Shown: positions 4,334 to 22,059, numbered from the stretch's first letter. The stretch is DNA of 43,595 nt from Candidatus Woesearchaeota archaeon (GCA_016926395.1 JAFGOT010000012.1:1-43595), one strand, 5' to 3'. Notes: generated by a model from the letters alone, not told the origin. A program made the numbers and translations.

Positions 4334-5026
4334 ACTCATTATGCTAAGAGCAGTGTGCAAGAAACCAACCTTTATCATCCTACCAAAAGAAGTTCCAACA
4401 AATTTAATATCGCCACTTCGTTTTAATTCTCTATAAGTTTCCATTGGATAATCAGAACTTGTTAATTGCTCAATAGCAGCAATCCCACTGACATGAAGTT
4501 CATATTCAGGATAATCAACAGCACCACATTCAATAGTAGTAATTTTCTTATCTTCAAGTTTTAGATATGCAACAGGAGTTCCATTAAGATAAAAATTAAA
4601 ACTATCATAAGTAAAAGGAATATAGCTAGGAAGCTCTAAACCAATTAAATCATTCTCTTCAGTTAAAAATGAACAAAGACTAGCACCAACTAAAGTGTTA
4701 AATATCGAGCTAACATTGGAGTTTTCTTCTAAAGCTGACAAATTTACATCACTAACATCAACTTCCGCCATAATATCTTCCCAAGCAGAAGGAGGAATAG
4801 CATCCAAATCACAATCAGTAGCTAAAGGAGCAATAGCAGCTAAGTTTTCATCAGTTAATTTGCCACTTTCAAGAAGCTGAGTTACCTGCATAGACTCCTC
4901 GGGAGTTAAGTTACAATGAGCAAGAACGTCTTCTCCAACGGCTAAAACGCCTGGAATGATAGCAACTAATAATAAAAACCAAATAAACAATTTTTGTGAC
5001 ATAAACAAATTACTAAGAATGAACAT
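4322..5026 (-). CDS. Secreted or membrane-anchored protein with a possible SCP2-like C-terminal domain
   Basis: N-terminal signal or TM segment, acidic linker, and a C-terminal pattern (LKLEDKKITTIECG...PEYELHV...YRELKRSGDIKFVG...KVGF) resembling SCP2-like domains, judged by eye. Confidence 0.6.
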   Translation of the reverse strand: MFILSNLFMSQKLFIWFLLLVAIIPGVLAVGEDVLAHCNLTPEESMQVTQLLESGKLTDENLAAIAPLATDCDLDAIPPSAWEDIMAEVDVSDVNLSALEENSNVSSIFNTLVGASLCSFLTEENDLIGLELPSYIPFTYDSFNFYLNGTPVAYLKLEDKKITTIECGAVDYPEYELHVSGIAAIEQLTSSDYPMETYRELKRSGDIKFVGTSFGRMIKVGFLHTALSIMSLFN

Positions 5027-9893: not shown

Positions 9894-10939
9894 TTGCAAA
9901 AACCAAAATAACTAACATGTAATGAATCCAAATATTCAATATTTTCATCTTTAAATACTAATCTTAAGAACTTAAAGGTCTTATCTTCTTCAGAATAAAC
10001 TTTAAAATATTGCAAATAAGATTTATCTAAGGCATCATCAAGTAAATCGATAGAAACATATTCACCATCTTGTTTCAAAATTCCATTAAATGTGAAATTC
10101 ACAGAGGAAATATTCTCAGTAAAAACAAGTGTTTTGTAAATGTTAAACAAAGAATCATCTTGAGTAAGTTCATATGAATAAGAGGTAGAACAATTAGTAG
10201 ACTCATTAAAACCAGTTCCATCAGATGCAAGAAATCCAATAATTAGAATTGCAAAAACAAATATTAAACCAATAAAAGTAATAATAAAATCTTTGATTAT
10301 TGAAGATTTTTTTTTGAATTTAAAACTTCCAAAAACAACTGAATTATATTTTAATTTGAAAGCTGAACTAAATAACAGTATAATCAACATAGTCCACAAG
10401 AAATTTTCAAAAACAGATATAAAACTCAAAGTATGAAAAATAAAATTATTCGATTGGGTGAAAAAATCTAATTTCAAAAAAAGAAATGAAAATCCATATA
10501 ATATTAAGAATAATTCAATATCAACAACATATCTATCAGAAGGGGTATAATTCATCCTTATTGAAATAAAAAATAAATAAATTAAAACCACAGATAAACC
10601 AATTATTCTCGAGATACTGTGACCTGGAAATGAAAGCATAACCTCAAAAAGATAGAAAATTAAAAAACCTGCAAAAAATAATCGAGTTAACTCAACTAAG
10701 AAAGGCAAAATTAATCTTATGAATGATTTGTTAGTTCTTTTAGAGTCTTTCCAATACGATATAAATAAAGATTTATTATGAAGATAAATCATATACCAAC
10801 CAACCATAAAAAGAACAATAAAAATAACATAAATAATTGTCAAATTATTATTATCAGAAAGATAGAATGAAAAAACAGCAACTAATAAAGATAACAAAGC
10901 AGTAATTTTCCAAAAGTCTATTTTAGTATCTAGTTGCAT
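9890..10939 (-). CDS. Multi-pass membrane protein with a soluble C-terminal domain
   Basis: 349 aa with about seven hydrophobic segments; no family recognised. Confidence 0.7.
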   Translation of the reverse strand: MQLDTKIDFWKITALLSLLVAVFSFYLSDNNNLTIIYVIFIVLFMVGWYMIYLHNKSLFISYWKDSKRTNKSFIRLILPFLVELTRLFFAGFLIFYLFEVMLSFPGHSISRIIGLSVVLIYLFFISIRMNYTPSDRYVVDIELFLILYGFSFLFLKLDFFTQSNNFIFHTLSFISVFENFLWTMLIILLFSSAFKLKYNSVVFGSFKFKKKSSIIKDFIITFIGLIFVFAILIIGFLASDGTGFNESTNCSTSYSYELTQDDSLFNIYKTLVFTENISSVNFTFNGILKQDGEYVSIDLLDDALDKSYLQYFKVYSEEDKTFKFLRLVFKDENIEYLDSLHVSYFGFCN

Positions 10940-11090
10940 GAATAAAAAATAAAGAGCGCTCTAAATAAATATTTCTAAAAAAAAGCATAAAACACAACAT
11001 TTATCCAATTTATATAAAAAAATATCATTATACGAGTTAAAACACCACTTTAAAAGAGTAAAAATATAAATAACTATTAATTTACGCTAA

Positions 11091-12065
11091 TTGGCAATGA
11101 ACTTAAATATAGATAGACCCATTGAAAGAGAAGAAGAAGACAAATTATATTATAATGAACTATATGCAGGAAAGCTAGAACAAATCATTTCTAAAAACAA
11201 AGATAAATGCATCAAAGTTGGACTATTTGCCAAGTTTGGATCTGGAAAAACAAGTACAATAAATATCCTGTGGCAAAGATTGAAGAACAAAAGAAAAGTA
11301 ACTTTAAAAAAGAAAAATAAACGATTCATCCATGTAAAATCATTATGGGATTATTCTCCCGAAGATATTCTAAAAAAAATTATTGTTTCAGTAGATAAAC
11401 AAGCAAATTTAAAACTCAATTTAAACAAAGAAATAAATTCTGAAACAACATATATAGATGAGAAAGAAAAACGAATCAACTTCTTAACATACATAACGAT
11501 TTCTCTTTTCGCATTAATTGGAATCTCATTAATCGGAAAAAACACTGCAACAATAAATATGAATAAACCTATTAATGATATTGCAACAGTGGCTCTGAGC
11601 CATTCAATGACAATACCAAGTGCAACACTCCAATTATTAATAGGTTTGATTACAACGGGCTTAGCAGTTATGTTTGCAGTTAACTCATTTAAGAAACAAA
11701 CTAGAAGACCTCCTTCTACAAGTTATGATTTTGAAGATTATTGGATACAAATTCTTAAAGCAGCAAATCAAAAAGGAATAAAAGAAATAACATTAGTAGT
11801 AGATGACTTAGATAGATGCAAACCAGAAATAGTAAATGGGATATTTGGAAAGCTAAATGCAATCGTTGAGCAAACGGAAGAAAGATCCAAAATAAGTATG
11901 AACTTAATAATTCCATTTTCACTAGCAGATTATTTATTAATCGATGGAGATAAAGAAATCGAACGACTAAAATTCAATTATAAAAAATTCTTTGATATAA
12001 TAATAGACATGCCAGAACTAGGACCATTAGAACTTCAGAGGTTAGATGAACATGAAAATAAGTGA
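11091..12065 (+). CDS. KAP-family P-loop NTPase, N-terminal part
   Basis: Walker A GLFAKFGSGKTS, two TM segments inserted in the NTPase, Walker B LVVDDLDRC, and KKFFDIIIDMP; TTG start. Confidence 0.85.
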   Translation: MAMNLNIDRPIEREEEDKLYYNELYAGKLEQIISKNKDKCIKVGLFAKFGSGKTSTINILWQRLKNKRKVTLKKKNKRFIHVKSLWDYSPEDILKKIIVSVDKQANLKLNLNKEINSETTYIDEKEKRINFLTYITISLFALIGISLIGKNTATINMNKPINDIATVALSHSMTIPSATLQLLIGLITTGLAVMFAVNSFKKQTRRPPSTSYDFEDYWIQILKAANQKGIKEITLVVDDLDRCKPEIVNGIFGKLNAIVEQTEERSKISMNLIIPFSLADYLLIDGDKEIERLKFNYKKFFDIIIDMPELGPLELQRLDEHENK

Positions 12066-14264: not shown

Positions 14265-14602
14265 TATGTTTCTCCAAGTTGGAGAATTTTATTAAAATAT
14301 AGTCTATAGACAATAATTTAGAGGGGAAATAGAGTTATAACTAAATCACAATAGAATATAAAGGTAGGTTGGATAAAAAAACAACTCGGAGATGAATAAA
14401 TGACTATCGAAATAATTAACAAAATATGTTATTTCTGTGACCGAACGGGACAAGAATATAACAAAGAAGAATGCGATAATACTATTAAAATAGATAACAA
14501 TGAATTAACTTTGTGCAATAAATGTTATTTAAGATATAAAGAAGGAAAATTACCTTTAACATATACAAAAATTTAATTTATTCAAGTAGGAGATTCGAAC
14601 CT

Positions 14603-14809
14603 TTAAAGAAATGGTGACCCCAGGAGGGCCGGATTATTGACATCACGTCGAGGATGAACCTCTGAAATCCCAAAAAGAGCCACTTTCAACAGCTGATTGA
14701 TTGTCTTGGATATGTTCACACCTTGTTTTTTGAGGTTTTCGTGGGCCTCATAATCAAGATTAATATGTATCCTCACAGCTTTGTTTTTACTGTTCTTTTT
14801 TGGTCTCAT
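14603..14809 (-). CDS. Integrase N-terminal fragment (intN) with a ribbon-helix-helix-like domain
   Basis: The ORF runs through the att repeat (LLGSP is encoded by the repeat) and is in frame with intC across the repeat; RIHINLD...LKKQGVNISKTINQLL resembles an RHH fold. Confidence 0.85.
   Translation of the reverse strand: MRPKKNSKNKAVRIHINLDYEAHENLKKQGVNISKTINQLLKVALFGISEVHPRRDVNNPALLGSPFL
14611..14627 (-). repeat. att site, tRNA-distal copy
   Basis: ATGGTGACCCCAGGAGG is identical to 21981-21997 (tRNA-Arg 3' end). Confidence 0.92.
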
Positions 14810-14810
14810 T

Positions 14811-15119
14811 TTAATTATTAAGATGCTTTTCTAGTTCATCTACAAACTTATCAATGCATTTTCTAGCACCACCACCCCAAATATCATCTGAGGAAGCAGT
14901 AATATTTATGTCTGTTCCAGAATCATTAGGTCGTAAATCAATCCTAACTGGAACTCTTTGTAAACCGTATTTTGTTTTAAACTTCAAAGATTTTAAAGTT
15001 TTATTTGACTCAACATCTTTACCGATTGATTCAGCAACAGCAACAACTATATCAAAAACATTTGATAATTTTAAGTCAACAAATATACTTCGTTTAGATT
15101 CTCCAACCATAAAAAACAC
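14811..15119 (-). CDS. Hypothetical protein (element cargo)
   Basis: 102-aa alpha/beta-patterned ORF ending 1 nt before the intN start. Confidence 0.7.
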   Translation of the reverse strand: MFFMVGESKRSIFVDLKLSNVFDIVVAVAESIGKDVESNKTLKSLKFKTKYGLQRVPVRIDLRPNDSGTDINITASSDDIWGGGARKCIDKFVDELEKHLNN

Positions 15120-15146
15120 CTAATTAGAAAAATAAAAAATAAAAAT

Positions 15147-16217
15147 CTATCTTAAAGTGATAGACGTTGAAGCAGTTGCTATAACTTTTGTTGAAACTCC
15201 TCGTTTAAGATTAACTTTCAAAGTATAACTTCCAGGAGGCAATGAATCCATACTATCATAACCAACATACGTTTCTTTGTAAACACCATCATAACCCACA
15301 GGAATTTCATCAAAGTCATAAGCATAAGTATCAATGTCTCTGCTTTTCACGGAATCCAATTTCATGATATAAAAATCAAAAGTAGGATTACTAAGAGGAA
15401 TTTCTCCAACATTCTTTATGCCAACTTTAACATAATCTAGGAAACATTCATCACTATAGCTATAACAAGTAGGATTATAATCAACAACACTCAATTCTAT
15501 TTCATGCTCCTTGTTTGCTAACTCTAATAATTCTTCCTCTTCTTTGATTTGTGATTTTAATACATCTCTTCGTTCAAAAATATCATAATCAAACAAATCA
15601 TTTATTTCGTCAAGCTGAGCATCATCAAAAGCATTTAGTCTTTCAAGTTCTGCTTTATCAAGTTCGATGATTTGGGAAAAAAGTTGTTTGTATTTGGTTT
15701 CATCAGATTCTTTATTCATCTGTTCCATCAAGTCTCCTCGATTAACATTCCATTCTCTTCGTTCATATCTATAATTTACAAATGCTTCTAGAAGAGCAGT
15801 ATCATAAGCTTCAGATAATTTAGCAACACTTCGGTTCATTTGATTAATTTTTGTTAAAATAGTATCAAAATTAATTAGGTCTCCCTCTTTGCTGTATTCC
15901 CAACTTTCTTCTTCCCAGTAACCCATAAACTTTTCAAACTCATCAGTTTCTTCAAGTTTAGCTTTAGCACAAGCATTAACTACTTTATCGCCTTGGTTTA
16001 GTTCCTTACATGAGGAGAATGCAGGACATTCAATATCCAAACAACAATTATCAGATGTTTCTCCAGTTTCAATAATTCCATTACCACATATTGCTTTTGC
16101 ACTAGATTTAGAAGACAAACCAGAATCTGTAGAATCACTCGTATCACTAATTGAACAAGCAGTGAACAAGAACATCACAGTCACTAAAATAGCCAAAATC
16201 ATCAATCTAAATTTCAT
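15147..16217 (-). CDS. Lipoprotein with a Cys-rich motif, coiled coil and probable Ig-like C-terminal domain
   Basis: Lipobox-like LFTA-C; CGNGIIETGETSDNCCLDIEC; beta-rich C-terminus (VKVGIKNVGE...PPGSYTLKVNL). Confidence 0.75.
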   Translation of the reverse strand: MKFRLMILAILVTVMFLFTACSISDTSDSTDSGLSSKSSAKAICGNGIIETGETSDNCCLDIECPAFSSCKELNQGDKVVNACAKAKLEETDEFEKFMGYWEEESWEYSKEGDLINFDTILTKINQMNRSVAKLSEAYDTALLEAFVNYRYERREWNVNRGDLMEQMNKESDETKYKQLFSQIIELDKAELERLNAFDDAQLDEINDLFDYDIFERRDVLKSQIKEEEELLELANKEHEIELSVVDYNPTCYSYSDECFLDYVKVGIKNVGEIPLSNPTFDFYIMKLDSVKSRDIDTYAYDFDEIPVGYDGVYKETYVGYDSMDSLPPGSYTLKVNLKRGVSTKVIATASTSITLR

Positions 16218-16228
16218 AATAAATCACC

Positions 16229-16261
16229 TATTTGGTTAATAGATTGTTAATATTTGGTTAT
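16229..16261. promoter_or_regulatory. Three 11-bp tandem repeats between divergent genes (candidate operator)
   Basis: TATTTGGTTAA / TAGATTGTTAA / TATTTGGTTAT. Confidence 0.55.
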
Positions 16262-16583
16262 ATATTTAAAAGTTACTATTTCAAGTATGAACACATATGC
16301 AGGAAGAAACATACCTCAACTAAATACTCAAATAGAGCTTATTTCATGGCTAAAACGTGGAAAGTATAGGCGGGATGTTTTTGAACAAGTTAAAGACAAA
16401 ACAACACCTGCAGAAATTGTTGCAAGATTATCCAAACAAAGAAAATCAAGTAGTGACTACGTGCAAGTTTCTAGAGCTTTGAGAGAATTAGAATTACAAG
16501 GACTAATTAAATGTTTAAACCCGAAAGAAAAAACTGGAGGACTATATGAGAAAACATCCAAAGGAACTAAAATAATTATTTGA
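16254..16583 (+). CDS. Winged helix-turn-helix transcriptional regulator (start may be ATG 16287)
   Basis: TPAEIVARL...QVSRALRELELQGLIKCLNP...GGLYEKTSKG matches an archaeal wHTH pattern. Confidence 0.8.
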   Translation: MVIYLKVTISSMNTYAGRNIPQLNTQIELISWLKRGKYRRDVFEQVKDKTTPAEIVARLSKQRKSSSDYVQVSRALRELELQGLIKCLNPKEKTGGLYEKTSKGTKIII

Positions 16584-16816
16584 GTTTCATAACACATCAC
16601 TTCTTTGTGAATTATGATTTCTATATAATCAAATTTTCAAAAACCGTGGAAAATAAGTTAACAAATAAAAAGAACTTTCTTCAAAAAACCGAAGGGAGGT
16701 AGTGCTTTTTCCTCACACTATTATTTGCATAAAACCGAGTAGGCTCACATTTTTGAGATTCAATTTTTTGAACGGAACAACAAAAGATTTATAATATATA
16801 TAAAATAAATTAAATC

Positions 16817-17089
16817 ATGGTTAAACAAACTATGAAATCTGAAAATTTAATCTATATTTTTAGATTACTAGGTATGTTAATCATCACAGTAATTATGAGA
16901 TGTTTGTTCAGCAAAACCAACCAAGAATTTTATGATTACATATCCTATGTGTTTTCAATAGGGATATTATTATTAATATTATTACCAAATCTTCATGAGT
17001 TTAAATTTTGGGGAATTAGTGCAAAAGGAAATAATCAACAAATAGACGACACAACTAAAATAATATTGGTGAACGAAAATGGCAAATAA
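16817..17089 (+). CDS. Small two-TM membrane protein
   Basis: Two hydrophobic segments; overlaps the next ORF by 11 nt. Confidence 0.65.
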   Translation: MVKQTMKSENLIYIFRLLGMLIITVIMRCLFSKTNQEFYDYISYVFSIGILLLILLPNLHEFKFWGISAKGNNQQIDDTTKIILVNENGK

Positions 17090-17405
17090 AATAAATTTTA
17101 AAGAAGGAAGTATTAATTTTTGGATTCCGGAAAACGTATTTGACTTTGACGATAACCAAACACACATACTAGTAAATCAAGGAAATTTAGAAGGCTCAAT
17201 ATTTATTGTTAAGGATGGGGATAATAAACTTAAATTCTTTCATGTATTGCTTGGCAAAGGAAGAACAGATGTTGTTATAGATGTACAAGAGTTATTAAAA
17301 AGTGAAAAACACATGATTACTGCAACGTGGAGCATAAGTAAAAAAGAAATCAATCTTTACATTGATGGTGGGAAAAAACACAACACTACCAAAATAACGT
17401 ATTAA
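17079..17405 (+). CDS. Small beta-sandwich protein, LamG/concanavalin-like
   Basis: EGSINFWI and HMITATW...INLYIDG resemble LamG-like strands. Confidence 0.6.
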   Translation: MANKINFKEGSINFWIPENVFDFDDNQTHILVNQGNLEGSIFIVKDGDNKLKFFHVLLGKGRTDVVIDVQELLKSEKHMITATWSISKKEINLYIDGGKKHNTTKITY

Positions 17406-18850
17406 TCACAACTGACAACCGGTTTAAAACCTAATTTTTCTTCGTATTTTTCTATCATTAAATTCATAACTTCTTCTTGATGCGAAATCCCAACCATGAC
17501 TGAATCATGAATAGGAATTGCAGGAATATTTTTTGTTACTAACTCATCTAAAATTTCCAACATTATTGATGAATCTTCAAATTGTAAATCTAAACCAACT
17601 CCGGTAAAGAAAAATTCTTCAATATTTGGATGTGCTGTTCTAAATGCAGAGATTATTTCCCTTATTCTTACGTGTGTACTAATCTCATCGCCAAATTCTT
17701 CCTTTAGTTCATGATTAGAACCAAACTCTCTTGCTATTGCTTTTATTGCAGACTCTTCATCGCCACTATTGAGCATAATATTTGTTACTGCTTTGTTTAG
17801 TTTTCTTGTTCCTTCATCTCCAAAAGAATAAAGGTCTGTTTCAGAAGGATAAATATTTTTTCTATGATAAAGCATACGCAAATGCAATGTGCTATAATCA
17901 GGTTCAACGACAGATTCATCATTAATTTTTATTTCATGACGAATAACTTTTGGCAAACCTTGAACCTCACTTCCATACAATCGACCACCTTTTGTAAAGC
18001 TTGATTGATTAAATACACGTTTGATTGATAAGTGTCTTAATGAAATCGTATGAGTAAAGGGGTAATAGTTATTTACTAGTGAATCTAATATCTCATTTCG
18101 TGTGGTAGTCTGTGAATCATATCGTATATAACGTGAATCTGTATTGAAATGAGTGTATAGATGAATCCGTGTATTAAACAATAACTGCGAGTAATCTTCG
18201 TCATTCATCTGAACCGTGACTTGTTGATTTAAAATGAATTCATTGTATCTTTGAATTTTTCTCCTCATCTCATCAAGTTCAGGAGTATTTTCATAGTCAA
18301 CTAATTTTTTATGTTCATCTTTTAACTGAATAGGTTCAACAAAACCAGAATCATCAATATCCAAAGCATCGTTAGAAGAAAACCGTGGAAGTAAATTTCT
18401 AAGTTTAGTCATAGAATCAACACGAGAGTACCTTGATTTATTTGCAAAGCTAAAACCTTTCGCAGAAAGAATAAGATAATCAGTTTCAATTAATTTTTTT
18501 ATTATTGATTCAATAACAATGTTGTAAGTAAAAAATTTAGGGACATAACGAGAACGCTTATCAGAGTAATAATTTTTATTGAACGAAACTGCAACTGGAC
18601 GTTCACAACGCCAAGCAAGAAAAAAATTAGTCAGTATACAATTAAGGGCACTACGTTTAAGTTCTTGTTGATAACCTGAAGACAAGCCAAGTTCATCAAA
18701 CAAAGTATCAACAACAGAAACAAAGTTTTCATCATCAGAATAAGAACGATAATTTAAACGACGAGCACTATCAAAATATAAAGCCTCAAAATGTTTTTGT
18801 TGCAAATCTAAAAGAGATTGCTCTTCCTCAAAATCAAATTGCCAATCCAT
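17402..18850 (-). CDS. Minimal polymerase of the family A DNA polymerase / T7-type RNA polymerase superfamily (TV-Pol-like)
   Basis: In order: GGRLY (DxxGR-like), VVEPDYSTLH (motif A Asp), RKLNK (motif B RxxxK), LQFEDS, IPIHDS (motif C); no exonuclease domain evident. Confidence 0.8.
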   Translation of the reverse strand: MDWQFDFEEEQSLLDLQQKHFEALYFDSARRLNYRSYSDDENFVSVVDTLFDELGLSSGYQQELKRSALNCILTNFFLAWRCERPVAVSFNKNYYSDKRSRYVPKFFTYNIVIESIIKKLIETDYLILSAKGFSFANKSRYSRVDSMTKLRNLLPRFSSNDALDIDDSGFVEPIQLKDEHKKLVDYENTPELDEMRRKIQRYNEFILNQQVTVQMNDEDYSQLLFNTRIHLYTHFNTDSRYIRYDSQTTTRNEILDSLVNNYYPFTHTISLRHLSIKRVFNQSSFTKGGRLYGSEVQGLPKVIRHEIKINDESVVEPDYSTLHLRMLYHRKNIYPSETDLYSFGDEGTRKLNKAVTNIMLNSGDEESAIKAIAREFGSNHELKEEFGDEISTHVRIREIISAFRTAHPNIEEFFFTGVGLDLQFEDSSIMLEILDELVTKNIPAIPIHDSVMVGISHQEEVMNLMIEKYEEKLGFKPVVSCD

Positions 18851-20891
18851 TTTGTAATTCTTCCAACTCTTTTTTTGTTTGTTCTAATTCAGCTCTCTTG
18901 TGTGGATGTTGCTTAACATCATATTCAAGAGTTTTTAGTTTTTTTGTTAACTTTTCAATATTTTCTTTTTTAGTTATTTCTGCTTGACAATCAGCACATA
19001 ATTCGTTTCCTAATGAACAATAACTACATTTTGAACATGAATGATGGTACTTAACAAAAATCTTTAACAACATTTGTTTATCTAAGTAAATGAATTGTTT
19101 TTTTGCTCGATGACATAAACGATTACACTCAGCGCGAGTTTGTTCTAAAACTGGCTTTGGTGATGCAACAACAACAATTTCTGATTCACTATCACTAACA
19201 CACCTTGCAACTTGTCTGATAATTGTTCTTGAAAAGTCCGTATTACTTGATGAGTCCCTCATAGATTTAAGTACAAAACTTGTTAATACGCGTTTATCAT
19301 CAATGTGCAAGTATCCTTCTGCATCGGTTATTTCTGCAGGACCGTGAGGATTTGGTGTCACACCCAAAATAGAACAGATTATTTCAGTTAAATCTTGAAT
19401 ATCATCTTTGTTTGGAGCAAGATTTTTATCTTCATAATAATTATCAAGTGCACTAGAAATGTTATTAAGATGACGAATACCATATTTTGTTTCTGTTGCA
19501 TCAATATTAAATTCTTTAATTGCTTCATAATTATATGTAGGTCTAGTAATTGTCAACTCATCATTTAAAAAACTTAAAACAGGTAAATTTGTTTGACCAA
19601 ATTCTCTTGCCACAACTCGTTTATCATCACTATTAAAGAAAAATAATTGCACTTTATCAACGTCAGCAATATCGCCTTTCCAATTACAAGAATCACACAC
19701 TAAAGAGTCATCTTCTCTTGAAAGAAACGACTTACATTGAGGACACAAAAAATCTGTTTGCTTCATCAATATCCCTTTATCATACAAAATATCCAACATA
19801 TATAATATTGATTGTATCTTTTCGTTATTACTTGAAAATTGACCATCAAGTTTATCAAAGAAAATTAACTTAAGGAGAGATAATGCATTTTTATAATAAT
19901 TAGGTCTTTCATTATTGAAATCTGATAAGGACAACTCTTCAGGAAGAGGAAATTCTTTTAATTCTACATAATCTTCAAAAATGTCTTCAATAAGTTTTGT
20001 TAATACTTCAACCTCATCAAGAGCAACTTTTCTTCTGAAAAAAATTCTTCCCTCATCTCGGTTAATACCACAATTTAATTTGAAATCATCAAGAATATGT
20101 TCTGCATAAAGACTGACTTCCGCTCCAACTTCTAATGCTGAACGATAAATTGTACTCATCATAAGATTTCCTTCAAACCTTGATGTTAATCGTTCAGAAC
20201 CAACGTCATCACCATTCAAAATGTGAATGGAACAGCTAGATAATCGATTTGATTTTTCCTTCCAGAGTTTTATTTGAGTATCATGAAATCGTAAGATAAG
20301 AAAATCAATATCAAAAACAGAAGAGAATAAATCTTTAACTTCATCTGCTAAATCCATATTTTTTGTAATAGCAAAAAATAATGAAGTTCCTTCAACATGA
20401 ATAAATAAACAGGAATCTAAAAACTCAACTTCTTTATTATTTCCTTTCTTATCTTTATAGGTAAATACACCCAAGGAATCATATTCAAAAATTCTAAAAA
20501 TTCCTTTTTGATAAATTCTTCTTAAAACAGGTTCATCATCACTCAGTTCATCAGTATCGCGTAAATTAGCTAAAGCATCATCATCAAGGTCAACCATAGA
20601 AGATAAATTATTCTCAACTATTTTTTCATTAATATGCTCCACATACGAATCAACAACAGAAGTAGACCGATAAAGATAAAGCGTTATAGGCCCTTCAAAA
20701 ATACAAATTTCTTTCAACCAATCGACATCTGCATCTGAAAGAGAATTGACTAATTCAATACGTAAATCTTGTGCTTTTTTTGTTGGAGTCCGTTTAATTT
20801 CATACTTATCCAAAAATAAATCAAGTAAACGTGTGGGAACATATTCATCTAAGAACCGCTCCACTTCATCAGTGTCATAAGTCTCTACCAT
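18834..20891 (-). CDS. Large protein with a Zn ribbon and a C-terminal restriction-endonuclease-like (PD-(D/E)xK-type) domain
   Basis: CPQC...CDSC; GPAEITDAE...TSFVLKS followed by an alpha/beta pattern; terminal Cys cluster CSKCSYC...CADC; overlaps the polymerase start by 17 nt. Confidence 0.55.
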   Translation of the reverse strand: MVETYDTDEVERFLDEYVPTRLLDLFLDKYEIKRTPTKKAQDLRIELVNSLSDADVDWLKEICIFEGPITLYLYRSTSVVDSYVEHINEKIVENNLSSMVDLDDDALANLRDTDELSDDEPVLRRIYQKGIFRIFEYDSLGVFTYKDKKGNNKEVEFLDSCLFIHVEGTSLFFAITKNMDLADEVKDLFSSVFDIDFLILRFHDTQIKLWKEKSNRLSSCSIHILNGDDVGSERLTSRFEGNLMMSTIYRSALEVGAEVSLYAEHILDDFKLNCGINRDEGRIFFRRKVALDEVEVLTKLIEDIFEDYVELKEFPLPEELSLSDFNNERPNYYKNALSLLKLIFFDKLDGQFSSNNEKIQSILYMLDILYDKGILMKQTDFLCPQCKSFLSREDDSLVCDSCNWKGDIADVDKVQLFFFNSDDKRVVAREFGQTNLPVLSFLNDELTITRPTYNYEAIKEFNIDATETKYGIRHLNNISSALDNYYEDKNLAPNKDDIQDLTEIICSILGVTPNPHGPAEITDAEGYLHIDDKRVLTSFVLKSMRDSSSNTDFSRTIIRQVARCVSDSESEIVVVASPKPVLEQTRAECNRLCHRAKKQFIYLDKQMLLKIFVKYHHSCSKCSYCSLGNELCADCQAEITKKENIEKLTKKLKTLEYDVKQHPHKRAELEQTKKELEELQNGLAI

Positions 20892-21081
20892 AGTGTTACA
20901 ATATATAGGTTGTATTTATTCATTTCGAATACTTGGCCAAAACAAGGATAAAAAACAGCAAAATTGGACAAAAAAATCAACCCTTATTAAACGAGACATA
21001 TAACATGTAATGTTAACACAGAACCATTCTAAGCAATGTGTAAACACAATACGCAACATACCAATAATAGGACTAATTCCC

Positions 21082-21981
21082 TTAACTAATACTATTTGAT
21101 GCTGTTTTCTCCTTAAGCAGTAATACCTCACTAAGTTTCTTTGCAACTTGCTTATACCAAAACTCTGCTTGTTGATTTTTAGCTAAATAATGATTTGCTC
21201 CAATACTGTTTGAAGCACGGCCTTGTATAAAATCTGCTACTCCTTCCGGTACTCCATTATACAGTAAAAAGTTATATTGCCACTTACGAAGATACTTAGC
21301 ATTAAACGTAGCTTTTTTGTTATATACATCTTGTAATCTGTTATTACTTCCAGTTATTCTTTTCAGTTTCTCATAAACAAATAATGGTAAAAAGACTGTG
21401 TTAATATTCTTAGTTTTACGATTATTAGCAACCGAGTATGACACAAAACCGTCGTTTATCTTAAACTTATTAACATCAAACGTTTTTAAGAAATCTAAAC
21501 ATTCAACAAAACGGATTCCTGATGTAGCAAGTATCAAAAATATCAGTTCTAAATCTTCGTTTTCTTTAAGAGCCGTATAACAACTTAACACATCTTCATT
21601 ACTCGGAACATAATAATCATTACCATCCCTACCTAACTTCAAAACCTTACGATAACGCACCAATACATCGTCTTCAAGCAACTCCAACTCTTCACAGAAG
21701 TTTAGATATACCCTACAAGCTTTAACCTTATTTCGTCTTCCTGACGGTTCTGATACAATATATTGACTAAGTTCGAACGGACTATCAAAGGACTTATCTC
21801 TAAAGAATCTGTTAAAATAAGAACGAATTCCTTTAACGTAACCAGTACCGAATTTAGTACTAAGCCAAGAGATAAAATCATCTCCTCTAACAAAATTTAG
21901 GCAGTTAACGTGGGCCTCTTTGTGATGCTCATTTTGAGAATTAAGAGTTTCAACAGCTCTCCGTGATGAATGAGAAATATA
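21082..21981 (-). CDS. Tyrosine integrase C-terminal fragment (intC), SSV-type
   Basis: The frame is open from the att repeat to the stop; catalytic set SGIR...K...KYLRK...QGR...NHY (R-K-KxxR-R-Y). Confidence 0.92.
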   Translation of the reverse strand, partial: YISHSSRRAVETLNSQNEHHKEAHVNCLNFVRGDDFISWLSTKFGTGYVKGIRSYFNRFFRDKSFDSPFELSQYIVSEPSGRRNKVKACRVYLNFCEELELLEDDVLVRYRKVLKLGRDGNDYYVPSNEDVLSCYTALKENEDLELIFLILATSGIRFVECLDFLKTFDVNKFKINDGFVSYSVANNRKTKNINTVFLPLFVYEKLKRITGSNNRLQDVYNKKATFNAKYLRKWQYNFLLYNGVPEGVADFIQGRASNSIGANHYLAKNQQAEFWYKQVAKKLSEVLLLKEKTASNSIS

Positions 21982-21997
21982 TGGTGACCCCAGGAGG
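21981..21997 (-). repeat. att site, tRNA-proximal copy
   Basis: Identical to 14611-14627; covers the last 16 nt of the tRNA plus 1 nt. Confidence 0.92.
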
Positions 21998-22059
21998 ATT
22001 CGAACCCCCGACCTGCCGGTCCGAAGCCGGCCGCTCTATCCAAGCTAAGCCATGGGGCC
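21982..22059 (-). tRNA. tRNA-Arg(UCG), intronless, CCA encoded
   Basis: Acceptor GGCCCCA/TGGGGTC, anticodon arm GCCGG-CTTCGGA-CCGGC, T-loop GGTTCGAATCC, 3' ACCA. Confidence 0.97.

Follow-up and report, generated by a model that had tools for sequence, protein, structure and literature searches.

A 43,595-nucleotide (nt) stretch of DNA from Candidatus Woesearchaeota archaeon (GCA_016926395.1, JAFGOT010000012.1:1-43595; referred to in its full length as the window) contains, at positions 14611 to 21997, a mobile element that is inserted at the 3' end of a tRNA gene, is bounded by an exact 17-nt repeat, and encodes a 482-amino acid (aa) protein predicted to carry a polymerase domain. The interpretation favored here, to which a probability of about 55% is assigned, is that a 7.37-kb circular plasmid-like element of a DPANN host of the Woesearchaeota/Nanoarchaeota type is present here in its integrated form, with the polymerase acting as its replication protein. 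Together with three relatives, the element forms a family of 5.8–7.4-kb tRNA-integrated elements whose constant genes are those of one integrase clade and of a polymerase that combines a winged helix with a PolA-type domain.

Integration into tRNA-Arg and the split integrase gene

The 17-nt core ATGGTGACCCCAGGAGG of the attachment (att) sites occurs exactly twice in the window, at 14611-14627 (attL, the distal copy) and at 21981-21997 (attR, inside the 3' end of the tRNA gene), with a spacing of 7,370 bp; no further copy was found in the window at up to two mismatches, and none in 100 shuffles. The target gene, tRNA-Arg(TCG) at 21982..22059 on the minus strand, is the sole tRNA gene detected in the window by ARAGORN and matched Rfam family RF00005 with 59.8 bits, whereas no other Rfam family was found inside the element. 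Each core copy consists of the final 16 nt of the tRNA and one additional base, and the tRNA therefore remains intact at attR. Attachment in the 3' part of a tRNA gene with a duplicated core is a feature of elements that use SSV-type integrases. Insertion took place through site-specific recombination of tRNA-Arg(TCG), at its 3' end, with a 17-nt attP that lies inside the integrase gene of the element; the tRNA was thereby regenerated, and the integrase gene was split into the two parts Int(N) and Int(C).

Int(N) (14603..14809, minus strand) begins at 14809, crosses the left att site, and on the chromosome stops two codons further on, leaving an open reading frame (ORF) of 68 aa. When the element ends were joined in silico (21980 to 14611), this frame remained open to position 21082, in frame with Int(C) (21082..21996, minus strand), and yielded an uninterrupted integrase of 365 aa. 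Its C-terminal 304 aa, which contain the catalytic part, matched the archaeal phage integrase family PF16795 (Phage_integr_3; E 1e-39, 136.5 bits compared to a cut-off of 27) and phrog_5127 (integrase; E 3e-42), and the PF16795 integrase was also recovered in a search of the whole genome. The first 45 residues showed weak matches to the ribbon-helix-helix (RHH) proteins CcdA and ParG. In an alignment of 15 homologues the residues R162, K196, R237/R260, H269, and Y270 were invariant and Y281 nearly so, which makes them candidates, at the level of the alignment, for the catalytic Arg/Lys/Arg/Tyr residues of tyrosine recombinases. Since an attP inside the integrase ORF and a split gene are the hallmark of this class (PMC8371274), the integrase is of the SSV type (“suicidal”, type I). 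Both att sites, the 7.37-kb extent, and the split integrase had been proposed in a preliminary description of the window, and the exact repeat and the continuous 365-aa frame with its PF16795 match bear these proposals out.

Among the 63 integrase homologues found at E ≤ 1e-10, the named ones belong to “Candidatus Woesearchaeota”, “Nanoarchaeota”, and “archaeon GW2011_AR3”, and the nine closest loci in a collection of species genomes (42–49% identity) are nearly all located in Woesearchaeota or Nanoarchaeota metagenome-assembled genomes (MAGs); over all searches, the identity of the closest integrases ranges from 42 to 52%. These relatives and the small genome (1.02 Mb in 40 contigs, estimated to be 82.5% complete) support the DPANN-like host that the preliminary description had suggested. 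Two related integrases likewise begin at tRNA 3' ends, namely at tRNA-Arg(CCT) in locus L052 (10001-11514) and at tRNA-Lys in locus L053 (7113-8566). In both cases the DPANN integrase (47–49% identity) is followed by an overlapping serine resolvase gene, and these loci represent another cargo backbone carried by the same integrase clade.

The element has a G + C content of 31.0%, compared to 32.2% for the genome, and is present as a single copy. Its polymerase was found in six of the 401 genomes of the phylum and in none of the 10 genomes of the same genus, no element gene adjoins tRNA-Arg(TCG) at five same-genus loci inspected, and all element ORFs are intact, which together point to a recent acquisition. 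An empty attB could not be demonstrated by synteny, as the same-genus DNA conserves the tRNA alone and the surrounding gene order is rearranged. A crude k-mer scan of the 1.02-Mb assembly revealed neither a CRISPR-like array nor a spacer-like match to the element. Two sequencing runs from one study contain the stretch.

Just beyond attL, the host flank at 14586-14603 reads AGGAGATTCGAACC, which corresponds to the tRNA-Arg T-arm GGAGGATTCGAACC minus one base and is possibly a relic of an older and longer att site from an earlier integration at the same tRNA. The left flank, with an ORF carrying the unverified label of a KAP-type NTPase and a 58-aa Zn-ribbon ORF (14400-14576), may be a decayed older island. 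In two same-genus genomes the match to tRNA-Arg(TCG) falls into two pieces about 25–60 nt apart (G042:C8:10109-10246 and G107:C10:12941-13047), a pattern that suggests an intron-containing target tRNA in some relatives.

The winged-helix polymerase and related elements

The 482-aa protein (17402..18850, minus strand) is modeled as a winged helix (residues ~38-161) followed by thumb, palm, and fingers (~160-482). It matched no Pfam family at E ≤ 1 and no entry of NCBIfam or PADLOC, and a PDB sequence search with the protein or its profile returned only a chance-level match to the winged helix of TrmB. A clear match was obtained with phrog_4756 (E 2e-50), a family of unknown function, and a search of 5.8 billion proteins recovered 21 relatives. 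The AlphaFold model calculated from the 21-sequence alignment had a mean predicted local distance difference test (pLDDT) score of 76, with values above 90 across most of the palm and fingers. Foldseek comparison of this model with the PDB retrieved family A polymerases (E ~1e-5, probability 1.00). With VIA, residues 160-482 matched the apicoplast PolA apPol (Z 14.5), yeast mitochondrial RNA polymerase (RNAP; 13.6), Aquifex Pol I (13.6), Pol nu (13.3), the Klenow fragment (13.1), and T7 RNAP (13.0); the matches to apPol, Aquifex Pol I, and the Klenow fragment span about 245 residues and display a right-hand fold of the PolA type. Residues 38-161 were modeled as a winged helix (Z 6–7 against winged-helix proteins), and no exonuclease fold, such as the 3'-5' exonuclease of PolA, was matched in the model.

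The alignment of the 21 relatives contains four invariant residues, which are D318 in motif A (EPDYS), R349 and K353 in motif B, and D449 in motif C (IHDS). Motif A of the window protein, DYSTLHLR, has a His at the position of the PolA steric-gate Glu, motif B (RKLNKAVTNIMLN) is devoid of the F/Y aromatic and of the YG, and motif C reads IHDSVMV (PIHDSFIV in the family consensus) and thus contains an HDS of the T7 type. Upstream of motif A, GGRLYGS (GGRFYGG in the consensus) is similar to the GRxY of T7 RNAP, in which motif C is HDSF and GRxY precedes motif A. Neither a match to the PF00476 profile nor the canonical PolA motifs (DYSQIELR; RxxxKxxxFxxxYG; HDE) were found. The hallmarks of T7-type enzymes, a PF00940 match and a large N-terminal promoter-binding domain, were not detected either (482 aa compared to more than 800 aa), and the fold match to T7 and mitochondrial RNAP was not better than that to DNA polymerases. 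Because of the His in motif A, the losses in motif B, and the T7-type HDS, the protein was placed neither in PolA nor among the T7-type RNAPs. According to the model it joins a winged helix to a polymerase domain of the PolA/T7-RNAP superfamily that lacks an exonuclease, and its clade is predicted to lie approximately equidistant from PolA DNA polymerases and single-subunit RNAPs, as a separate clade of the superfamily.

Screening of 79 genome loci with related integrases by the polymerase profile identified two elements, L055 and L061, whose polymerase homologues were matched by hmmsearch with E values of 2e-48 and 2e-44, respectively. L055 is located in an unclassified archaeal MAG and is bounded by 45-nt tRNA-like direct repeats 5,789 bp apart; in L061, from a Nanoarchaeota MAG, the repeats of at least 69 nt are 6,774 bp apart and the left one lies inside a tRNA-Phe gene. 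Joining of the ends restored uninterrupted integrases of about 350–370 aa with RHH-like N-termini in both cases. The two polymerases share 43% identity, and they are 26–28% identical to that of the window. The third relative, L001, is a partial element on a 6,555-bp contig and carries the closest polymerase (P0002, 50% identity). Its gene order mirrors that of the window and comprises an Int(C) cut by the contig end, two orphan genes, the polymerase, another orphan, a winged helix-turn-helix (wHTH) gene, and an RHH-type Int(N), with the wHTH protein 70% identical and the 87-aa Int(N) ORF 52% identical to their counterparts. Only the integrase and the polymerase are shared by all four elements, to which the wHTH protein is added in the closest pair (window and L001).

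The coding DNA of the window element and L001 is 64–71% identical. In the spacer that follows the wHTH gene, alignment is confined to a non-coding block of 30 nt, TAGGCTCACATTTTTGAGATTCAATTTTTT, at 16740..16769 (plus strand), which is 100% identical at 4554-4583 (minus strand) of L001. The block has the same distance from the wHTH stop codon in both elements, occurs once in the window, and is absent from L055 and L061. It showed no significant folding as DNA, and no match was found among JGI contigs, collections that may not contain the source sample. A promoter role is unlikely in L001, as the next gene of that element converges on the block. Judged from its sequence conservation, the block is a candidate binding site, origin, or site of action of the polymerase or the regulator.

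Outside these elements, tblastn detected homologues of the polymerase in 242 phage records, among them 115 of Rheinheimera, 98 of Vibrio, and 14 of Aeromonas phages. The phage genomes concerned are 110–145 kb in size, and in all 20 records listed the protein is labeled “hypothetical protein”; examples are MZ456352.1 (43697-45040), OP718284.1, and the Rheinheimera phages. Structural matches over the whole length were also obtained in BFVD (E 1e-23, TM-score up to 0.69), where one UniProt entry is named “DNA polymerase”, and in bacterial clusters of the ESM Atlas (TM-score 0.63–0.66), one of which is named “DNA polymerase family A palm domain-containing protein”. Relatives recovered from IMG/VR with a subgroup alignment are located mostly on long phage-like contigs, and patterns derived from the single polymerase protein retrieved no related loci, including from IMG/VR. 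More distant homologues on short contigs adjoin a serine resolvase or a tyrosine integrase gene. No published study of this polymerase family was found among open-access papers and bioRxiv preprints, and the searched parts of a 2023 reclassification of PolA (PMC10201439) and of a 2026 survey of bacterial polymerases (PMC12926913) describe nothing similar.

Two further homologues were observed in other settings. In another genome of the phylum (locus L028, G358:C17, 9431-10761), the polymerase homologue is split between two ORFs (146 and 302 aa) that immediately adjoin a cluster of four tandem tRNA genes (Gln, Glu, Val, and Gly; 10853-11155), and this locus is probably a decaying integrated relative. 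On the Thioclava plasmid NZ_CP053563.1 (5950-6885), the N-terminus of the homologue is cut by an IS21 insertion, and the gene adjoins a DNA methyltransferase/helicase cluster and an AbiEi/AbiEii pair.

Cargo genes and alternative explanations

In the circular form, the genes of a lipoprotein, a 102-aa ORF, the integrase, a 685-aa ORF, and the polymerase would constitute one co-directional block of five, while the wHTH gene and those of a protein with two transmembrane (TM) helices and a LamG-like protein run in the opposite direction from an AT-rich divergent region of 36–70 bp. The two transcription units converge at 17402-17405, and non-coding DNA of appreciable length is confined to 16584-16816 and 20892-21081. 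The divergent control region (16229..16260) contains two copies of TATTTGGTTA that are 22 nt apart and could serve as an operator. The 102-aa ORF (14811..15119, minus strand) had no match in Pfam, PHROGs, NCBIfam, or PADLOC. Its neighbor is a putative surface lipoprotein of 356 aa (15147..16217, minus strand) with a hydrophobic N-terminus (residues 1-27), a signal peptide ending in LFTAC with a lipobox-like Cys, and an Ig/CARDB-like C-terminal domain that showed shape matches of low TM-score to archaeal surface proteins of the CARDB/DUF7490 type in the ESM Atlas. The very AT-rich 23 nt between these two genes (15124-15146) have exact matches of 16–22 nt in about ten other contigs and are probably a common low-complexity sequence of the promoter or terminator type.

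On the other strand, the winged-helix regulator of 109 aa (16254..16583, plus strand; ATG at 16287 is the likelier start) had weak wHTH matches in Pfam and PHROGs. The 90-aa protein with two hydrophobic helices (16817..17089, plus strand) obtained family matches only below threshold. The adjacent 108-aa protein (17079..17405, plus strand), tentatively a ConA/LamG-like beta-sandwich, matched Laminin_G_3 (PF13385) with an E value of 1.8e-4 and 22.1 bits, below the cut-off of 27.6. No counterparts of the 102-, 356-, 90-, and 108-aa proteins were found in the related elements. A 92-aa protein with two TM helices is encoded by L055 and a signal/TM protein by L061; no membrane proteins are encoded in the L001 sequence retrieved.

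The 685-aa protein (18834..20891, minus strand) has only two relatives, with 33 and 25% identity, according to an exhaustive phmmer search of 1.84 billion representatives, and its AlphaFold2 model (pLDDT 65) was built from three sequences. Residues 64-311 resemble E. coli RdgC (Z 10.0 over 216 residues; Foldseek E 5.5e-5, probability 1.00), a match far above that of the same domain to lambda RexA. Residues ~497-628 matched the restriction endonuclease (REase) fold, with AF1548 (Z 7.6) and the catalytic domain of AspBHI (Z 7.5) as best examples, values in a range that supports a common arrangement only. The protein further contains two Cys4 clusters (one a Zn ribbon at ~383-402) and a C-terminal helical hairpin. 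In the model the RdgC-like domain is thus clear and the REase-like domain moderately supported, so that a nuclease-like nature is plausible and DNA binding is likely. The stop codon of the gene overlaps the polymerase start by 17 nt, and a conserved two-gene system of the 685-aa protein and the polymerase was considered and rejected. L001 has two unrelated ORFs in this position, the 685-aa protein is also absent from L055 and L061, and both homologues are encoded on contigs without polymerase or integrase genes.

The seven cargo ORFs named in the preliminary description are all present. The fold comparisons substantiate its assignment of a polymerase, whereas its label “nuclease-like” for the 685-aa protein holds clearly for an RdgC-like part and with moderate support for the REase-like part, and its “LamG-like” protein does have a family match, but one below the Pfam cut-off. 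The lack of recognizable capsid, packaging ATPase, relaxase, rolling-circle replication (RCR) Rep, MCM/Cdc6, and archaeo-eukaryotic primase (AEP) genes, which it had also noted, was reproduced with Pfam, PHROGs, NCBIfam, and PADLOC; the same searches yielded no terminase, and no helicase or P-loop family was found in any ORF by family search. PADLOC models gave no defense match, the only hit being a weak one to the wHTH region of the 109-aa regulator (E 2.9e-4). Hallmark virion proteins of pleolipoviruses and fuselloviruses, and NTPases or AAA+ ATPases, had no match in PHROGs or Pfam, although small hydrophobic capsid proteins can easily escape sequence searches. Of the three possibilities raised initially (a plasmid, a virus satellite, or a defense islet), the plasmid is favored by the core of integrase and polymerase and by the lack of virion, packaging, or known defense genes.

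For such a plasmid, the polymerase would be the replication protein and could act as initiator, given that no gene apart from those of the integrase and the polymerase is conserved, that other replication functions were not detected, and that a DNA-binding domain is part of the protein. Its winged helix may bind an element-specific site, for which the 30-nt block at 16740-16769 is the candidate, and the exonuclease-less domain would then start DNA synthesis at this site, either by de novo priming as in CcPol-MP and piPolB or from an RNA primer made in the manner of T7-type and mitochondrial RNAPs, before the host replisome takes over. The wHTH protein would control the two divergent transcription units, and the lipoprotein, the protein with two TM helices, the LamG-like, 102-aa, and 685-aa proteins would be exchangeable cargo, with the 685-aa protein possibly involved in exclusion or defense. 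For excision, an episomal or related copy would have to provide an intact integrase, a requirement that has been proposed for other suicidal integrases. A more far-reaching version, in which an undescribed family of archaeal integrative plasmids uses a self-contained initiator made of a winged-helix origin binder and a minimal polymerase that primes without helicase, AEP, or DnaG, is tentative and is put forward with distinctly less confidence.

Several observations weigh against the plasmid interpretation. The states of motifs A (His), B (no Tyr/Phe, no YG), and C (HDS) are compatible with a DNA or an RNA polymerase, and most homologues reside in large phages, where the protein is not the sole replicase of a small plasmid. 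The family consists of four elements only, with L001 being partial. No counterpart of the helicase or OB-fold partner that accompanies CcPol was detected, the 102- and 108-aa ORFs having been compared at the sequence level. Finally, neither JGI metagenome contigs nor IMG/VR, which may not contain the source sample, yielded the 43-nt attP junction of the circular form.

The strongest competing explanation, improbable but better supported than the other two, is a passively inherited islet in which the polymerase is not a replicase but acts with the 685-aa protein in defense, exclusion, or DNA repair, or functions as a T7-type transcriptase, and which moves only when an integrase is supplied. The overlap of the two genes, the RdgC fold of the 685-aa protein with its additional weak resemblance to RexA, and the weak HEPN-like gene adjoining its closest homologue fit this explanation, as do the methyltransferase/helicase cluster and AbiE pair near the bacterial polymerase homologue and the T7 RNAP-like HDS and GGRxY motifs. 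However, no ORF matched a PADLOC defense model, the gene pair is not conserved among the elements, and the polymerase is the one non-integrase gene retained in four of the four elements, for which a backbone role fits better than a role as cargo.

A small temperate virus of the pleomorphic or spindle type, whose genome would be replicated by the polymerase and whose envelope, spike, or capsid would be made of the lipoprotein, the protein with two TM helices, and the LamG-like protein, is unlikely. Pleolipoviruses are membrane-vesicle-like archaeal viruses of 7–17 kb, a range that includes the size of the element, and they also share with it integration into tRNA genes and the combination of a secreted and a small membrane protein. 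Moreover, SSV-type integrases were discovered in spindle-shaped viruses (PMC8371274), the products of the element include a secreted lipoprotein of Ig-like type, the hydrophobic 90-aa protein with its two helices, and a protein with a tentative lectin fold, and L055 and L061 contribute membrane proteins of their own. These proteins are, however, not homologous between the elements and are lacking in the retrieved part of L001. Neither a structural protein nor the spike, membrane protein, or conserved NTPase of pleolipoviruses was matched in Pfam or PHROGs, and the integrase family differs from that of the temperate pleolipovirus SNJ2 (PMC5861418). No related IMG/VR contig was found by single-protein polymerase patterns or by attP, and the IMG/VR relatives of the polymerase are mostly on long phage-like contigs.

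The plasmids pSSVx and pSSVi spread via fusellovirus particles. A comparable plasmid-derived satellite with its own polymerase, packaged by a DPANN helper virus, would agree with the small size, the integrase and replication gene, the lack of recognizable structural genes, and the precedent of archaeal plasmid-derived satellites including those of nanohaloarchaea (bioRxiv 10.1101/2025.02.15.638363), but is the least probable explanation, as no homologue of a helper signature (e.g., the AAA+ ATPase of pSSVx-like and SRCE elements) and no P-loop protein is encoded, and no helper virus is known or was seen in this genome.

Relation to known mobile elements

Overall, the element is of a known kind, a small archaeal element with an SSV-type integrase, in an apparently undescribed variant that is defined by a DPANN host and a putative replicase of the winged-helix PolA/T7 type and that recurs in related elements. 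The initial label “unfamiliar type” thus stands insofar as no paper describing such elements was found among open-access articles and bioRxiv preprints, but not for its parts, which have precedents in SSV-type integrases and phrog_4756-type polymerases. SSV-type integrases are also carried by pXZ1/pSSVi and TKV-type elements, and, as far as is known, elements with such integrases employ an AEP primase-polymerase, MCM, or an RCR Rep, whereas the putative replication gene of the element described here encodes a polymerase of the PolA superfamily. In common with SSV1, pTN3, and pT26-2 (PMC8371274, PMC7253208), it possesses the PF16795 domain, an attP within the integrase ORF, the split into Int(N) and Int(C), a regenerated tRNA 3' target, and a small (here predicted) circular form with mostly orphan cargo. 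It differs from the known representatives by its mesophilic DPANN host from freshwater or sediment, an att core of only 17 nt, and the RHH-like N-terminus of the integrase. DPANN archaea go unmentioned in a 2021 review of archaeal tyrosine recombinases, which associates suicidal integrases with hyperthermophiles (PMC8371274).

Family A polymerases of mobile elements that act as primases next to site-specific recombinases are already known (PMC7581432, PMC10061031). The module of the primase CcPol-MP and the helicase Cch2, from staphylococcal SCCmec and related Bacillota elements, is similar in that it includes an A-type polymerase with a reduced or missing 3'-5' exonuclease domain, encoded by an integrative element with an adjacent recombinase, the combination by which the CcPol type is defined (PMC10061031) and which was found in the window element as well, and CcPol-MP has been proposed or shown to prime the replication of its own element (PMC7581432, PMC10061031). 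As to a direct link, no PF00476 match was obtained and no CcPol was among the fold matches listed. The window protein carries a winged helix instead of the exonuclease remnant of CcPol-MP, occurs in an archaeal host, and has a motif C nearer to T7 RNAP; furthermore, the OB-fold partner or helicase that accompanies CcPol-MP was not detected in the element.

Pipolins are often integrated in tRNA genes and are bacterial or mitochondrial. In these integrative elements, which are cited in PMC10061031, a family B polymerase (piPolB) works independently of a primer. They resemble the window element as small integrative elements with a tyrosine recombinase and a possibly self-priming polymerase, but this polymerase is of family B and not of the A/T7 superfamily, and the integrase is of another type. 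The phage and bacterial proteins of phrog_4756 belong to the same family and share the whole-length fold, but are encoded by tailed phages of 110–145 kb and bacterial replicons and carry, in nearly all cases, the label “hypothetical”, whereas the window protein is the sole candidate replication gene of a minimal element.

As far as is known, archaea and archaeal elements replicate with polymerases of families B and D, AEP primases, and MCM. It is unexpected that the sole candidate replication gene of an archaeal element encodes a PolA/T7-type enzyme. The mobile elements of DPANN archaea are barely catalogued, and the base-exact boundaries and the three relatives provide a first small family, which also extends the suicidal integrases to mesophilic DPANN hosts. 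The 482-aa protein is a compact candidate for a new kind of primase-polymerase, and the 30-nt block offers biochemistry a concrete candidate origin or binding site. If the proposed role of the polymerase is true, it would be the first PolA/T7-RNAP-superfamily replicase in an archaeal mobile element and would represent a third deep branch of this superfamily beside PolA and the single-subunit RNAPs, shared with hundreds of unannotated phage genes; a function assigned here would then also annotate the homologues in about 240 phage genomes.

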